This document shows positions 1,071 to 57,710 of a stretch of 64,000 nt of DNA, in pieces. How positions within the stretch are numbered: the first letter of the stretch is position 1; every line of letters starts with the position of its first letter. The notes under the pieces were generated by a model. It saw only the letters and a list, made by a program, of their open reading frames with translations, did not search any database and was not told the origin of the DNA. The stretch comes from an uncultured Candidatus Saccharibacteria bacterium (lineage in GTDB: Bacteria > Patescibacteriota > Saccharimonadia > CAILAD01 > GCA-016700035). The position numbers and the translations under genes are program-made. Location: positions 4,708 through 68,707 of the forward strand of contig CAYMMM010000001.1 in NCBI GenBank assembly GCA_964391595.1. The letters are read 5' to 3'.

Positions 1071-1845
1071 AGCGAAAGTGTGTCTTTTTATACTTACCAG
1101 TCAGCAGGCCAAGTTTGATCGTTATTAGGTCAAAAAATACCTGTAGTGCTACTTTGATTGACTTAAGCTTGGAGCCACTTGAGATTTTTGAGCCCTCGAC
1201 GACGTCTTTCCAGTCTGGGACTTCGATAAGCTCAATACTATAGCCGAGCTTGCGTGCAAGAGCCAGTATTTCAAGATCGAATCCCCAGCCTAAAATCCGT
1301 TGTCTTCCAAAAAGCTCGTGAGCGGTTTGTCTTTCAAAAGCTTTAAACCCACATTGGGTGTCTGATATCCCCGGTACGAGGAGTGTTTGTGCGAGCCAGT
1401 TTCCGAAGGTAGAGATGAACTTACGGATGCCGGTGTGTGAATCTTCTAGGTTTCGAATGCATATACCAACCTGTCTTTTTTGTTCGATGAGCTGATATAC
1501 GTCCTCGAGGTATTTTAGGGGTGTCGCTAGGTCCGCATCCATGAACATGACATACTCCCCGCGCGCGGCAAAGATGCCATCACGTACTTGCTTGCCTTTA
1601 TTGTTTCCCTTGATTATGCCTGGACCTGTTTGAAGAAACTTGAACGATGTGAAGTGCTTACTTTCTGCTCTAGCTACTTTTTCGGTTTGATCACTGGACA
1701 TGGCGTCGACAACAATTACTTCTGCATCGTGCGCGTGTTCCTTGAGATACGTAGCAAGTGCCTTAAGGGTTGCACCAATACGTTTCTCTTCATTCAAAGT
1801 TGGGATGAGTATACTAAGCGTTGGCTTCCCAGCACGGGCATTCAT
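1048..1845 (-). CDS. GT2 polyprenol-phosphate sugar synthase (Dpm1/GtrB-like)
   Basis: 265 aa with an N-terminal LSILIPTLNEE stretch, a DAD motif (MFMDADLA), and overall GT2_2 architecture. Confidence 0.8.
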   Translation of the reverse strand: MNARAGKPTLSILIPTLNEEKRIGATLKALATYLKEHAHDAEVIVVDAMSSDQTEKVARAESKHFTSFKFLQTGPGIIKGNNKGKQVRDGIFAARGEYVMFMDADLATPLKYLEDVYQLIEQKRQVGICIRNLEDSHTGIRKFISTFGNWLAQTLLVPGISDTQCGFKAFERQTAHELFGRQRILGWGFDLEILALARKLGYSIELIEVPDWKDVVEGSKISSGSKLKSIKVALQVFFDLITIKLGLLTGKYKKTHFRYEPYKTQ

Positions 1846-8401: not shown

Positions 8402-8935
8402 TTACGCAGTAGCTTCTTTCTTATCTTTAATTGCTTGTAAGGCGTAGACCAATCCTGAGACGTTGCCATTGAGGGCGCGGACGAGGCCTGACATTGGAGC
8501 GGCGATAGTGCCAACCACCTGGGCCAGGAGCTGTTCGCGACTTGGCAACTTAGCGAGCGCGATGACTTCTTCTTTCGTGAGGATGTCACCAGTTTCGCTA
8601 ATTGCGCCAACTACTTCTACTGCATCATTGTCTTTTGTGAAGTCAACGATGAGTTTAGCGGCTTCAACCTCATCGGCGCCAAAAGCTACAGCCATTGGGC
8701 CTACAAAAGCTGACATGTCGGTGATTTCCTTATTACTCGCTTCGGCAGCTCGTTTGAGGAGCGTGTTCTTAGCGACCGTGAAGGTAATCCCCTTCTCGCG
8801 TCCAGCGTTACGCAAAGCGTTGATCGCTGGGACATCGAGTCCGCGGTAGTCGGTCAGGACGGCAAGCTTAGAAGCATTGAGGCGCTCGACCAGTTTTTCG
8901 AGGTCTTGCGTCTTTTGTTCACGGGTTTTTGCCAT
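8402..8935 (-). CDS. rplJ: Ribosomal protein uL10
   Basis: 177 aa and L10-like ([19 protein letters not shown]...). Confidence 0.9.
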
Positions 8936-9083
8936 CGTGAATTCCTTTATTTAATGAAAAAATCTTCGGTGCGAGCACTGAAGACACGAGAGACTGATCT
9001 TATGAAAAGATGTTGTCTTGGCCTCGGTAGCAGATTAAGGCAGGTTGAAGTGCCAGCTACTGTCTTCGGTTCGTACGAGAGAT
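8936..9083 (-). promoter_or_regulatory. Putative rplJ 5' leader (candidate L10(L12)4 autoregulatory leader)
   Basis: There is a ~150-nt untranslated region between the putative promoter and the rplJ start. The assignment rests on position only; the structure is not verified. Confidence 0.3.
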
Positions 9084-9112
9084 ATAGTAACAGATATGAG
9101 GGTATGGGTCAA
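9084..9112 (-). promoter_or_regulatory. Putative sigma70-type promoter for rplJL
   Basis: In minus-strand sense the sequence is TTGACC, a 17-nt spacer, then TACTAT. It lies immediately downstream of the island terminator. Confidence 0.35.
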
Positions 9113-9160: not shown

Positions 9161-10840
9161 TCAGTCTTCGGTGAGTGCAGCCTGACGCCGCGCCTCAAGT
9201 CGCTGCTCAGCTGCGATACGGCCGAGATCATATCGTTCATAGTCGGCGTAGCGCATCATCTCTGCAATTGCAGTGTGCCCGGCCACATTCTCGACTGCTT
9301 CGTGTATCGACTGACAGACCCGTCGGTAGTCGTCGTGGCCGGCGGGCTGAGTACGCAGCTCCACCATGTGTGTTAGCGCCCGGGCGTTGATCTGGATCGC
9401 GTAACGCATACGGTATGCGAAACCGAGTGCGTATTGAGGCTGAGCGTCAGCGGGAAAGACTCCACGCAGCTCGTCGAACAGCGCCGCCTGGGCTTCGAGT
9501 GCAGCGTCGTAGTGACCGCGCAGTCCCGATAGCTCAATCAGCGGTGGCACGATGTAGCCATGCACCGGCGTCAGCGTCTGCCAGGTCATGGTCAGCATGC
9601 GGTGCCGCTGAAGGTCGCGGAAGGCGCCGTAGTCGCTGAGGATCTCGAAGCGGTAACCAACCATCTCAAGCTGTCGCCCTGGCTTGTGACGCCGGTTGTG
9701 TGATCGATCACCGAAGTACGCTTCGAGTATCGACAACTTCTCATGATGGCTCATCAATTCCACGCGCCTACGCAGCTGTACCTCTGAGAAGTGCGTCTGC
9801 TCTGCCAGGATCGCGGCAACGAGCTTCACCTCATAATCGGGATCGAAGTCGAGTAGCTGTACCTCTGACGAGGTGGGCTCGAGCGTCAAGTCAGCCAGGA
9901 GTGCATCGGCTCGTTCGTTCACCGCTTCTCGATTTTGCTCGAGATAAGCACTCCAAGCGTTCCCGCGGTCTGGAAGATCGACGCGCTGCAAGAAGGATGG
10001 AATGACCTTGCGCAATTCCTTCAGCATCATGCCCGCGTATGCACGAGCTTCGGGCAGTGGATGAGCTCGCATGCGCAGCAACAGATGCTCGTACGACTGG
10101 CCCGAGCCGTAGATGCCCAAGTTCGAGATCGTCGCCGCAGGCAACAGTCCTCGAACATTGTCGAGCACTTTCGAACGTACCGACGCTTGCCAGGCAGGAA
10201 TCGACTGCCCATCAGCACGTGGATACAACTCCTCGGCCAGCGGCATGAGTTGCTCGAGCAGCCAGCTGTACTGCTGGAAGGTGATGTCCATGACATCCAC
10301 ATAGCGACCTGCCAACGGTGAGGCCATGATCTCGGGGTCGCGATAGTAGCGGTAGCGACCGTTCACGGTGCCGTCGTACCTGATGTAACGCGTCGATTGC
10401 TCGAGGTAGCCCATCAGGCGACCCCACTCGAGGATCTTGGTCAGCAGATTGCTGGCCTGCTCGCAGGCGAGGTGAGCCCCGCCCAGCTGCGCGACTGAAT
10501 CGTCGCCGTAGTCGCTGAACACCTTGTCGAACAGCTGTGTTCCGCGTTGAAGACCTGCGCCAGCGCCAGGTGCCACGTCCTCGGCTTCCTCGAGCTTCTC
10601 GTAGAACTCGGTGAGAAAAAGCCGACGCAGGCTCAACTCGGTGCGTGAGTAGCGCGCGAACAGTGCGGCGCGCACCACTTCGTCAAGTCCGCGCACTGCG
10701 AAGACCGGCAGATGCGTGTTGGTGAAGTAGCGCTCGAGGATTGCACACTCTGCTTCGGTGAACTCCTCGGCCGTGTAGCCGATGATGTCGGTTGGGGACA
10801 TCTTGTTCTCTCTTTCTGTCATGGTACTCTTGTCGAACAA
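9161..10840 (-). CDS. ThyX-family (Thy1, FAD-dependent thymidylate synthase-like) protein, double-length form
   Basis: 559 aa. The C-terminal region matches the ThyX C-terminal signature: NARALTHMVELRTQPAGHDDYRRVCQSI versus ThyX NARSL..LR...HAQ.EIR. An RHR motif is present (LQRHRMLT). The N-terminal half looks like a degenerate second copy. The gene appears G+C-rich. Confidence 0.6.
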   Translation of the reverse strand: MFDKSTMTERENKMSPTDIIGYTAEEFTEAECAILERYFTNTHLPVFAVRGLDEVVRAALFARYSRTELSLRRLFLTEFYEKLEEAEDVAPGAGAGLQRGTQLFDKVFSDYGDDSVAQLGGAHLACEQASNLLTKILEWGRLMGYLEQSTRYIRYDGTVNGRYRYYRDPEIMASPLAGRYVDVMDITFQQYSWLLEQLMPLAEELYPRADGQSIPAWQASVRSKVLDNVRGLLPAATISNLGIYGSGQSYEHLLLRMRAHPLPEARAYAGMMLKELRKVIPSFLQRVDLPDRGNAWSAYLEQNREAVNERADALLADLTLEPTSSEVQLLDFDPDYEVKLVAAILAEQTHFSEVQLRRRVELMSHHEKLSILEAYFGDRSHNRRHKPGRQLEMVGYRFEILSDYGAFRDLQRHRMLTMTWQTLTPVHGYIVPPLIELSGLRGHYDAALEAQAALFDELRGVFPADAQPQYALGFAYRMRYAIQINARALTHMVELRTQPAGHDDYRRVCQSIHEAVENVAGHTAIAEMMRYADYERYDLGRIAAEQRLEARRQAALTED

Positions 10841-34906: not shown

Positions 34907-35314
34907 TCAGAGGTACTGACCGGGAAAACTGTCTCCCTGGGGTTCTGAGCCGATCTTCTGGCGAACCCTCTCGAGTGTCTGCTCGATAATCTGCCTGCGA
35001 ATGGCTTCCAATTCTTCGCCGATGGCAGGGTGTTGCGTAAGGCGCATGACGATTTCTTCTAGTGCTTCATAGCCATCAACCTCATGGTATTCAGGCTCCT
35101 GCAGACCAAGCGCGACACCAAGATCGGATTCAAGCTTGGCAATCATGCGCTGGGCCTGCGGCGGTAGATCCATATCTTCTACTTCGAAGACTGTCAGGAT
35201 GTACGTACATGCGTAGAACGGTGTTGTACTTGTGATCTGAAAGATCTCGATCTGAGGCGGCATGAGCGCACGCGGCGTGACTCGAAGCTCAAACGTGGGT
35301 GTTAGATTGGTCAT
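34907..35314 (-). CDS. Hypothetical acidic protein, divergent from phhA
   Basis: Probable start is MTNLTP at ATG 35312-35314, preceded by AAAGGGGAG; the listed ORF start is further upstream. There is no family I recognise. Confidence 0.45.
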   Translation of the reverse strand: MTNLTPTFELRVTPRALMPPQIEIFQITSTTPFYACTYILTVFEVEDMDLPPQAQRMIAKLESDLGVALGLQEPEYHEVDGYEALEEIVMRLTQHPAIGEELEAIRRQIIEQTLERVRQKIGSEPQGDSFPGQYL

Positions 35315-35401
35315 GGACTCCCCTTTCGGGTGGTAGGTGCGAGGTGCAAGAATTATGTCAAATAATACTGACAGTGTCAAGCAAATTAGTCCATTTTTGA
35401 T

Positions 35402-35430
35402 TGACAATGTATGTACATACTGATACTGTC
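35402..35430 (+). promoter_or_regulatory. Putative promoter (TTGACA, 17-nt spacer, TACTGT) for the phhA leader
   Basis: The -35 hexamer is consensus but the -10 is weak. It overlaps palindromic operator-like motifs. Confidence 0.3.
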
Positions 35431-35436
35431 AGACGT

Positions 35437-35514
35437 ATGAATATCTCATTTGGCAAGCGCTATTACGAAGTCCCCCACTATTCGGCGGACTATTTGCGCA
35501 TGTCATATATATAA
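35437..35514 (+). CDS. Putative Tyr-rich leader peptide (MNISFGKRYYEVPHYSADYLRMSYI)
   Basis: A 25-codon ORF (ATG to TAA) with 5 Tyr codons including a tandem YY. It ends 24 nt before the terminator hairpin and has no strong SD (possibly leaderless). This is speculative. Confidence 0.3.
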   Translation: MNISFGKRYYEVPHYSADYLRMSYI

Positions 35515-35537
35515 AACGAACTATTGTAACTACACAG

Positions 35538-35559
35538 ACCGCCGAAAGGCGGTTTTTTT
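35538..35559 (+). terminator. Intrinsic terminator/attenuator immediately upstream of the phhA RBS
   Basis: An ACCGCC-GAAA-GGCGGU stem with a GNRA loop is followed by U7. Its 5' arm (CCGCCGAA, 35539-35546) is perfectly complementary to the upstream UUCGGCGG (35481-35488), offering an antiterminator alternative. Confidence 0.55.
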
Positions 35560-35588
35560 GTTTCAGATCAATATTTATAGGAGATAGT

Positions 35589-36365
35589 ATGAAATCATCT
35601 ACACGACAATTAGAAATCATAAACCTAGCAACCGCTGCTCATGCCACTCCTGCCCACATTGTGTACACACCAGAAGAACATCGGGTGTGGGAGACCGTTT
35701 GTGATGCACTGATGCCTATCTGGGAAGCACGGGTTGCTTACGAGGTATTGATAGCTAGCGCGCGACTAAACTTACCCACCGGGTCGATCCCGCAACTGAC
35801 GGATGTATCGCGCGCACTTGAGTGTGTAAGTGGTTTTGAATTTCGGGCAGTGGGAGGACTGGCTCCGCGCGAAGAATTCTTTGGCAATCTAGCCCATAAA
35901 CGCTTCTTGTCTACCCAGTACATTCGAGATGCGCAGACACCGTTTTACACCGAGCAGCCCGACATCATCCATGAAGTAATTGGGCATGCGACCTTACTAG
36001 CCGATCCGCAGCTGGCTGAGCTGCATCGCTTGGCTGGAAAAGCATTAATATCTGTAGAGACCGAATCGGCTAAGCAGTTCATCGCAAATGTCTGGTGGTT
36101 TTCGGGAGAATTTGGCCTGGTGCGCCAAAGTGATGGCATTCGTGCTGTTGGAGCAGGGCTTCTATCATCAGTGCATGAGCTGCAGAATATGCTGCAAGCT
36201 AAGCTCGTCCCGATGGACCCGACTGTCATGGGTCATACTTCGTATGACATTGATCAGCTTCAGACTACGCTCTTCGTGGCTGAATCGATGGCGCAGTTTG
36301 TGCAGCTCATCGGTGACTTTTTTAGGAAAGTGGATGACCAGATGATTGCCGAGATTATGATGTGA
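35589..36365 (+). CDS. phhA: Phenylalanine 4-hydroxylase (biopterin-dependent aromatic amino acid hydroxylase)
   Basis: 258 aa. The PDIIHEVIGHATLL segment carries the two iron-ligand His residues, and the length is typical of prokaryotic PAH. Confidence 0.8.
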   Translation: MKSSTRQLEIINLATAAHATPAHIVYTPEEHRVWETVCDALMPIWEARVAYEVLIASARLNLPTGSIPQLTDVSRALECVSGFEFRAVGGLAPREEFFGNLAHKRFLSTQYIRDAQTPFYTEQPDIIHEVIGHATLLADPQLAELHRLAGKALISVETESAKQFIANVWWFSGEFGLVRQSDGIRAVGAGLLSSVHELQNMLQAKLVPMDPTVMGHTSYDIDQLQTTLFVAESMAQFVQLIGDFFRKVDDQMIAEIMM

Positions 36366-36396: not shown

Positions 36397-36822
36397 TTAG
36401 ATAGCAACTGGGAAGCTGCGGACAAAATCTGACAGTTGATTTGGATCTTTGTGAAAGTTTACGAGGATGTGATTGTCCAGGGCATTGTGCTTAATAAGTG
36501 TTTCGCGCTCGATCGTGTACAGATCGTCGTCAAACCAAAGGAATGGTTTTGTAAAATCAATCCCCTCAGTCTTCCAGGTGCCCCACTCGCTATCTTTGAT
36601 GAGATGTAGACGTTGCGCCACCTCTGGCTTGAGGTACGGCGCGAGGTGTGCGATGGCGTTACTCTCGCCGTGCCATTGGTGGGTAGTTAGCCAGTACGTT
36701 GTATCGGGATAACGGTCGAGCACGAGACTGAGAAATTCATTCGCATATGGAGCAGCCTCGCCAATGTCCATTAGAAGTACGCCATCTATATCGAGATAGA
36801 TATTAGGCGTATGCTTACTCAT
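36397..36822 (-). CDS. HAD-superfamily-like hydrolase (putative)
   Basis: 141 aa with the N-terminal motif I (IYLDIDGVLL). Confidence 0.5.
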   Translation of the reverse strand: MSKHTPNIYLDIDGVLLMDIGEAAPYANEFLSLVLDRYPDTTYWLTTHQWHGESNAIAHLAPYLKPEVAQRLHLIKDSEWGTWKTEGIDFTKPFLWFDDDLYTIERETLIKHNALDNHILVNFHKDPNQLSDFVRSFPVAI

Positions 36823-57623: not shown

Positions 57624-57710
57624 TGGTGCAGGGGGAGGGATTCGAACCCCCGAAGGCATAAAGCCGACAGATTTACAGTCTGTTGCGTTTGACCGCTTCG
57701 CTACCCCTGC
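57624..57710 (-). tRNA. tRNA-Tyr (anticodon GUA), long variable arm, CCA encoded
   Basis: The reverse complement has acceptor GCAGGGG, anticodon stem-loop ACAGA-CUGUAAA-UCUGU, a long extra arm, T-loop UUCGAAU, and ends CCCCUGC A CCA. Confidence 0.8.

Follow-up and report, generated by a model that had tools for sequence, protein, structure and literature searches.

The window examined here, a stretch of 64,000 nucleotides (nt) from an uncultured Candidatus Saccharibacteria bacterium, carries at 35589-36365 a gene, phhA, for a pterin-dependent aromatic amino acid hydroxylase of 258 residues, and what concerns us is the short leader that precedes it on the same, forward strand. This leader begins with a promoter, whose -35 box TTGACA lies at 35401-35406 (the original prediction saw the box but placed it at 35402, one base off). 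A -10 box, TACTGT (35424-35429), follows 17 nt past it and ends 7 nt 5′ of the ATG of an open reading frame (ORF) of 25 codons, which runs from 35437 to its stop at 35512-35514. The corresponding peptide, MNISFGKRYYEVPHYSADYLRMSYI, has tyrosine at codons 9, 10, 15, 19 and 24. Next comes an intrinsic terminator, ACCGCC-GAAA-GGCGGT at 35538-35553 with seven T residues up to 35559, to which a pattern scan assigns a stem of eight pairs (35536-35555), and then AGGAG (35579-35583), the Shine-Dalgarno sequence of phhA. Reading the sequence bears out what had been predicted of the ORF, of its five Tyr codons with their tandem pair and of the terminator, while the T run ends some 20 nt, not 26, before the phhA Shine-Dalgarno.

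The gene had also been named as a phenylalanine hydroxylase, and rightly so as far as its family is concerned: PhhA matches Pfam Biopterin_H with E = 1.4e-49 and the phenylalanine hydroxylases of the PDB at 1e-39, and among NCBIfam models phenylalanine 4-monooxygenase, NF008877, comes first, at 232.5 bits for a cut-off of 247. The iron ligands of the 2-His-1-Glu type, His128, His133 and Glu174, are invariant across 28 relatives. In reference genomes the closest proteins belong to metagenome-assembled genomes (MAGs) of Candidatus Saccharibacteria, with 57-61% identity. A homologue search with ribosomal protein L10 of the window points the same way: leaving aside entries described as 'bacterium' and no more, the relatives that have a name are Candidatus Saccharibacteria or Patescibacteria.

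Four segments of the leader RNA, numbered 1 to 4, can combine in three ways. Region 2, UUCGGCGG at 35481-35488, lies within the ORF and is perfectly complementary, as had been noticed, to CCGCCGAA at 35539-35546, hence to a part of region 3, the terminator 5′ arm with its loop (35536-35547). Region 4 (35548-35559) comprises the 3′ arm GGCGGU and the T run, and was retrieved both by the pattern scan and by folding. Pairing of 2 with 3 makes an antiterminator, that of 3 with 4 the terminator. The two mutually exclusive structures that had been proposed are thus present, and a third element has to be added, a predicted anti-antiterminator hairpin inside the ORF. In this hairpin, found in both minimum free energy and centroid structures, region 1 (35451-35475) provides the 5′ strand: its inner part, GUCCCCC at 35469-35475, pairs with 35484-35491 and sequesters GGCGG, while its outer part, 35451-35460, pairs with 35496-35505 and closes the whole. 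The window leader, 123 nt long, folds with a z-score of -4.05, equalled by none of 200 shuffles. A perfect complement of 8 nt between the ORF and 35530-35548 appeared in 34 of 5000 dinucleotide shuffles, and five or more Tyr would occur among 24 codons with a probability of about 0.001. Among the six strict intrinsic terminators of the 64-kb window, that of the phhA leader alone does not come after a gene. Taken by itself, this evidence is suggestive, short of decisive.

Relatives provide the comparison. The upstream regions of phhA were gathered from genome contigs, from exact-protein look-ups and from one metagenome scan, giving 15 distinct leaders (labelled below, where a name is needed, L001, L002 and so on), all on Saccharibacteria-like contigs with a PhhA 53-100% identical to that of the window. 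Short ORF, Tyr cluster and terminator are together in every one of these 15 loci, and the promoter accompanies them in 13 of the 14 that have upstream DNA. ORF length hardly varies: 11 leaders have 23 codons, three have 25 and one has 24. In all 15, a hairpin and its U-run sit 16-63 nt ahead of phhA, between the gene and the sole recognisable promoter, and no second promoter was recognised between terminator and phhA. The original prediction had proposed a check, namely that relatives should have the leader ORF, the Tyr codons in it and the complementarity that makes the antiterminator: all are kept throughout, with compensatory changes in the pairing of 2 with 3, as far down as 53% identity of PhhA.

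This constancy goes along with considerable divergence. By sequence, at least four groups of leaders can be told apart. In group A the peptide follows the pattern ..Y(Y)-x-VP-(Y/H)Y-x-AD-Y.. in six of seven members, L094 having NPYL at the VP-(Y/H)Y positions; in group B the pattern is ..Y-x-Y-T-D-Y-x-x-A-V... L013 and L095 make a group of their own, with GGCGG in a different reading frame and a Tyr cluster still upstream of it. Group C (L016 and L017) has a different terminator, CUCCC/GGGAG, and a region 2 to match, and retains both the ORF length and Tyr at codons 9 and 11 despite full replacement of regions 2, 3 and 4. The module thus appears to be kept through complete turnover of the terminator and antiterminator sequences. 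A covariance model built from the 15 leaders matched phhA leaders only, in 202 kb of sequence to which the window and 25 GC-rich phhA loci belonged; among viral contigs, two motif scans returned none and four matches, the latter chance occurrences with no match to the covariance model. In all 23 GC-rich phhA relatives examined (PhhA 42-50% identical) the leader module is absent. Both GC-rich loci that were checked for neighbours, L021 and L034 (PhhA 42-46% identical), have a divergent regulator of the Lrp/AsnC type beside phhA, and further loci in the range L019-L040 have similar upstream sequences, while in the Saccharibacteria-like clade the leader is present and there is no conserved neighbouring regulator. 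In the phhA family, then, control would lie with a protein in one lineage, and with RNA and ribosome in another.

Tyrosine is what the leader ORFs have in common. It makes up 56 of their 335 residues, that is 16.7% against 3.4% in the long ORFs of the window (binomial P = 8e-23, the leaders being treated as independent). The excess is one of codons read in frame, with 56 TAY triplets in the ORF frame, 16 and 12 in the other two, and TAT and TAC replace each other at identical codon positions among leaders. Each leader has three to five in-frame Tyr codons, at least one of which, and usually two or three, always falls within codons 9-13; in the window this is the tandem TAT TAC of codons 9-10 (35461-35466), the proposed sensing site. 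Among the 15 leaders no other residue shows a comparable excess at the sensing positions, and phenylalanine in particular stays at background. Between groups the peptides are otherwise unrelated, sharing Tyr and length only, as can be seen from MRLFNSNSYYYTDYLPAVVAVRS, MQLVSLQSYSYTYPETRCLFSMY and MTQASTVFASYYYRASLGGLACY. Since L013 and L095 read GGCGG in another frame and still have their Tyr cluster upstream, it is the Tyr codons and the RNA pairings that are conserved, not the peptide.

How would such an ORF be translated? In 13 of the 14 leaders scored, a -35/-10 pair of the sigma-70 type, with a spacer of 16-17 nt, ends 6-7 nt 5′ of the leader ATG (in L013 the -10 box is of the extended form, TGATATAGT, 6 nt from ATG). 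No Shine-Dalgarno sequence precedes the leader ATG in the leaders examined, while in 13 of the 15 loci phhA itself is provided with GGAG or AGGA. With a -10 box so close to the ATG, and no Shine-Dalgarno, the ORF is probably leaderless: judging from promoter geometry, transcription would probably start at, or adjacent to, the A of the ATG, and translation probably begins there too, on the 5′ end of a leaderless mRNA.

The pairing of region 2 with region 3 was explored in several ways. In every leader the best duplex between nt 37-63 of the ORF and the terminator 5′ arm, together with its flank and loop, has an energy of -12 to -24 kcal/mol (-15.9 for the cognate duplex of the window). The mean is -16.8 kcal/mol for cognate duplexes and -12.7 for non-cognate combinations, which are thus weaker (permutation p < 5e-5). 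When the leaders are aligned by anchoring them on a 5-bp core, 71% of the cells are paired, to be compared with 60% after shuffling (none of 500 shuffles reaches the observed value) and with 33-40% when the strands are slid by one to three columns; an out-of-register version of the same structure, in effect a further negative control, has 41.8%. In 13 of the 15 pairs both partners have changed, with a covariation score of 0.263, compared with 0.110 for shuffled sequences (0 of 500). Region 2 also covaries with three bases of the loop, G35544, A35545 and A35546, of which the terminator itself has no need. The first of these loop positions takes part in C-G, U-A or A-U pairs depending on the leader, and examples of such covariation are found in the window (UUCGGCGG/CCGCCGAA), in L007 (UCUGGCGG/CCGCCAGA), in L094 (UUUGGCGG/CCGCCAAA) and in L013 (UCAGGCGG/CCGCCUGA). 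In group B the helix is extended in the other direction (GGCGGUAG/CUACCGCC and GGCGGUAUU/AAUACCGCC), and in group C both strands have been replaced, giving GGAGGUG/CGCCUCC. A pooled column test that ignores subfamilies is weak, with 84 of 182 non-core cells paired against 50-70 after sliding, because the helix grows on the loop side in subfamily A but on the side of the 5′ flank in B. RNAalifold applied to a MAFFT alignment recovered the terminator alone.

At equilibrium the terminator prevails in the fold of the full-length leaders, which is uninformative about a switch; the transcript was folded up to region 3 instead. When the ORF is folded alone, each of the 15 leaders has its region 2 paired to bases further upstream (P = 0.39-0.99). 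Here too the sequences change: region 1 has no homology across subfamilies, and the outer helix that closes the hairpin, which has equivalents in relatives, is built from ACACAGU/ACUGUGU in L002 and from AACAGCAACU/AGUUGCUGUU in L009. With no ribosome on the transcript, region 1 keeps region 2 locked in six of the 15 leaders.

To place a ribosome on this RNA, 28 nt were masked (from -15 to +12 around the A site) and the transcript was folded as far as the loop of the terminator. In the window an A site placed at codons 4-12 gives the antiterminator, as does one at about codons 2-12 in most leaders; from about codon 13 to codon 22, again in most leaders, no antiterminator forms, because the ribosome covers region 2. 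The productive interval holds at least one Tyr codon in every leader. The idea of the original prediction, that stalling at Tyr codons frees the antiterminator, thus holds for the early codons 9-13, and fails for Tyr 15 and 19, where a stalled ribosome sits on region 2. Tyr is also the last or second-last sense codon in five of the 15 leaders (the window, at 35506-35508, L013, L095, L016 and L017), and in most of these five a ribosome masked at the terminal Tyr leaves region 2 free again. Under this masking model, the mid-ORF and terminal Tyr codons suggest either a more complex response or constraints at the level of the RNA.

We can now see how the device might work. Transcription would start at, or next to, the ATG of the leader ORF, and a ribosome would load on the 5′-terminal AUG and trail the polymerase. 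When charged tRNA-Tyr is ample, it would clear codons 9-10 and cover region 2 while translating codons 13-22. After its departure, region 1 (35469-35475, closed by 35451-35460/35496-35505) would recapture region 2, leaving region 3 to join region 4; the terminator (35536-35559) would then form, and phhA would not be transcribed. When Tyr-tRNA is scarce, by contrast, the ribosome would stall at the early Tyr codons, its footprint lying over region 1 and stopping short of region 2. Region 2 could then pair with region 3 before region 4 is made: no terminator, read-through, and production of PhhA. A bolder extension of this scenario takes into account the Tyr codons that come later (14, 15, 19 and the last one): these would give a two-interval, non-monotonic response to the degree of Tyr shortage.

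We hold it likely, and with good confidence for a reading drawn from comparison of sequences, that the phhA leader is a functional Tyr-responsive transcription attenuator, mediated by ribosomes on a leaderless mRNA. Several points weigh against it. The 5-bp core on which the covariation alignment is anchored was picked from the sequences themselves, and the leaders are related to one another. The U-run of the terminator is interrupted in L014 and L015. In nine of the 15 leaders the equilibrium fold of the ribosome-free transcript, taken just before region 4, prefers the antiterminator, so that basal termination would need either kinetics and co-transcriptional folding, or a ribosome covering region 2. 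The conserved Tyr 14, 15 and 19 of subfamily A sit where a stalled ribosome covers region 2 and favours termination, and in four leaders of this subfamily codon 10 alone, within the productive interval, codes for Tyr. The stop codon lies some 18 nt past region 2, with the consequence that a ribosome at the stop leaves region 2 unmasked, unlike what happens in trpL. As for the enzyme, a score slightly under the NCBIfam equivalog cut-off makes its substrate specificity uncertain. Elements, conservation, covariation and geometry are what was observed, and from these we infer the start site, the translation of the ORF, its coupling to transcription and the response to tyrosine.

A rival reading is that the ORF is incidental, and that the choice between terminator and antiterminator is made by an agent other than a ribosome: a metabolite as in riboswitches, an RNA-binding protein, or uncharged tRNA in the manner of a T-box. 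Alternative structures and covariation are expected of any such switch, and the mid-ORF Tyr codons are a misfit for simple stalling; moreover, in subfamily A the stretch GUCCCCyAyUAUyyGGCGGACUAy is strongly conserved in nucleotides. Across subfamilies, though, 16 columns are invariant, and conservation hardly goes further than the terminator, the ATG and some of the GGCGG core; nothing there resembles a candidate ligand-binding core, and L016 and L017 have swapped the whole of regions 2, 3 and 4 while keeping Tyr 9 and 11 and the ORF length. An agent of this kind would leave unexplained the in-frame excess of TAY, the synonymy of TAT and TAC, the fixed length of the ORF and its fixed distance from the promoter. 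The leader, with its 120 nt or so, is also too short for a T-box, and has no T-box or riboswitch match in Rfam. We consider this explanation unlikely, though not negligible.

A unit with a strong promoter and a strong terminator may also be read as an independent small RNA gene, perhaps acting in trans, or as a constitutive partial terminator: the transcript of about 120 nt would be the product, and phhA would be expressed by leak-through or from another promoter. Terminated attenuator RNAs can indeed act in trans in other bacteria, rnTrpL being an example (PMC6614838). Yet the unit is seen solely ahead of phhA, amid changing neighbourhoods, within that same short distance of the start of the gene and with no promoter recognised in between; covarying antiterminator and Tyr codons would have no explanation, and a role in trans could add to attenuation rather than replace it. 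All this makes such a small RNA or constitutive terminator distinctly improbable. There is still less to be said for the peptide itself being what matters, either as a micro-protein or, in the way of TnaC, as an arrest peptide which, while nascent in the exit tunnel, would sense free Tyr or Phe. A core VP(Y/H)Y-x-AD(Y/S) is indeed found in six of seven members of subfamily A (NPYLLADY in L094), but the nucleotides conserved in that subfamily coincide with the RNA pairings, between subfamilies the peptides share Tyr residues and length alone, and the frame change of GGCGG in L013 and L095 is hard to reconcile with a selected peptide; this last possibility seems to us very improbable.

The attenuator reading has well-known counterparts. 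The enterobacterial attenuators (trpL, pheL/pheA, pheM/pheST, hisL, thrL and leuL) likewise have a short ORF rich in cognate codons, overlapping 1:2 (in phhA a probable pairing), 2:3 and 3:4 pairings, the 3:4 pairing being an intrinsic terminator before the gene, and sensing codons so located that a stalled ribosome would cover region 1 and free region 2. The phhA leader differs from them in its apparent specificity for Tyr, in belonging to a Saccharibacterium, and in having as its target the interconversion of Phe to Tyr rather than a de novo pathway; it is also apparently leaderless rather than led by a Shine-Dalgarno sequence, with a stop codon well past region 2. In short, it would work like an attenuator of the trp/phe type, outside every curated family. 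Indeed, searching Rfam at the locus with E values up to 10 returned Trp_leader (RF00513) at 29.1 bits for a threshold of 41 and Phe_leader (RF01859) at 17.7 for 55, both below threshold and both accounted for by the terminator; at gathering scores the whole window has no match at the phhA leader, and the 14 relatives have none at theirs with E up to 0.1. The absence of a riboswitch, T-box or other family at threshold, at the locus and in its 14 relatives, agrees with what the original prediction required. Membership of Trp_leader or Phe_leader was rejected on these scores, and also on the lack of any Trp codon in the window ORF and the background level of Phe in the 15 leaders. T-box (RF00230) and riboswitch membership was discarded as well: no T-box appears with E up to 10 at the locus, or up to 0.1 in relatives, and the leader is only about 120 nt long.

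Another counterpart is the aroR leader that precedes aroF in Corynebacterium glutamicum, a Gram-positive. According to PMC11802643 (after Neshat et al. 2014), this is a ribosome-mediated transcription attenuator, serving a gene of aromatic amino acids, with a Tyr codon in its peptide (Phe-Tyr-Phe), and it responds to limitation in Phe, reportedly not in Tyr. The phhA leader is enriched for Tyr alone in the sensing interval, with Phe at background, and its target would be phhA. Mycobacteria have leaderless short ORFs with a run of cysteine codons, which act on translation (Canestrari et al., bioRxiv 10.1101/834739). They would share with the phhA leader a leaderless 5′ short ORF, stalling at a cluster of codons for one amino acid and a switch in RNA structure; amino acid, target and phylum differ, and in phhA it is transcription, via a U-run terminator, that would be switched, the Shine-Dalgarno sequence being 20 nt beyond the terminator and outside the conserved pairings.

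A comparative study lists tyrosine genes under T-box control, and those for His, Thr and Phe under control by attenuators (PMC1262725). T-boxes of the B. subtilis tyrS type also sense the charging of tRNA-Tyr, and also choose between terminator and antiterminator. Unlike the phhA leader, they bind uncharged tRNA directly, with no translation, in some 200 nt that contain Stem I, a specifier loop and the T-box sequence. In some Bacillus species comparative studies reportedly place a Tyr T-box before pah, a phenylalanine hydroxylase gene. In Pseudomonas, PhhR/TyrR are DNA-binding protein regulators of phhA; these, and regulators of the Lrp/AsnC type, control the same gene, but by means of proteins bound to DNA. 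No leader-peptide attenuator specific for Tyr came to light in our survey of the open-access literature, nor any work on how phhA is regulated in Saccharibacteria. It is fairly likely that we have here the first Tyr-specific leader-peptide attenuator, the first control of a phenylalanine hydroxylase gene by ribosome stalling and the first attenuator described in Patescibacteria (the Candidate Phyla Radiation, CPR).

Does such a switch make biological sense? Patescibacteria are in general devoid of amino acid synthesis (PMC11665869), which makes hydroxylation of Phe a plausible source of Tyr. A switch that is on at Tyr shortage fits with the expected status of the host as an amino acid auxotroph. 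It also fits with a biosynthetic gene: in L093 (1340-2152, forward strand) a class-II DAHP synthase (incomplete at the end of the contig; Pfam E = 4.8e-72) begins 4 nt after phhA. The Tyr leader of L093 would then also control the first enzyme of the shikimate pathway, and the presence of this gene indicates that some of these organisms retain part of aromatic amino acid biosynthesis.

The consequences, if our reading is true, go somewhat beyond a single gene. A textbook mechanism would be extended to Tyr, an amino acid otherwise found, in the open-access literature, under the control of T-boxes or proteins. Amino acid auxotrophs would be monitoring the charging of tRNA-Tyr and topping up their Tyr from Phe; the leader, for its part, independently supports the enzyme as a phenylalanine hydroxylase that produces Tyr. 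In ultrasmall CPR bacteria ribosomes would load on a 5′-terminal AUG and be tightly coupled to RNA polymerase. The leader also offers testable evidence on gene regulation in Saccharibacteria, where little is known. With reference to engineering, an inducible expression system for Patescibacteria is still to be developed (perspective in PMC11665869), and this native promoter-plus-switch, of about 160 bp, is a candidate part for that purpose.

Two genes flank the unit of leader and phhA in the window, a divergent one at 34907-35314 (-), of 135 residues, and another at 36397-36822 (-), of 141 residues; neither has a Pfam or NCBIfam match, and neither is kept beside phhA in relatives. They were considered as parts of the system and rejected, for want of a conserved neighbourhood and of a family match. 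As the neighbouring genes vary from locus to locus, the unit made of leader and phhA is self-contained. An inverted repeat (35366-35385 with 35396-35415), with arms of 20 nt that are 80% complementary, extends across the -35 boxes of both divergent promoters, and a perfect 12-bp palindrome, GTATGTACATAC, occupies 35409-35420, within the spacer of the leader promoter. Together they could be a candidate operator for an additional protein regulator; neither is evident in the closest relative, L008.

Finally, some observations may be recorded for their own sake. In L001, a Candidatus Saccharibacteria MAG, an S-adenosylmethionine (SAM) riboswitch (RF00162, 51.3 bits for a threshold of 44.4) lies at 1549-1660 (-), about 1.2 kb from the phhA leader. 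A 559-residue ORF of the window, at 9161-10840 (-), contains two stretches of ThyX (Thy1) domain, and is about twice as long as usual for ThyX; the exact protein read from its TTG start is absent from the protein collection, so that this start may be miscalled. At 8947-9087 (-), upstream of rplJ (8402-8935), is a match to L10_leader (RF00557, 52.9 bits), a further element of control at the RNA level in the window. The tRNA-Tyr gene of the window, with anticodon GTA, is found at 57624-57710 (-), 22 kb from the phhA leader and clustered with two tRNA-Thr genes; with GUA as its anticodon, this tRNA would serve for TAT as well as TAC.

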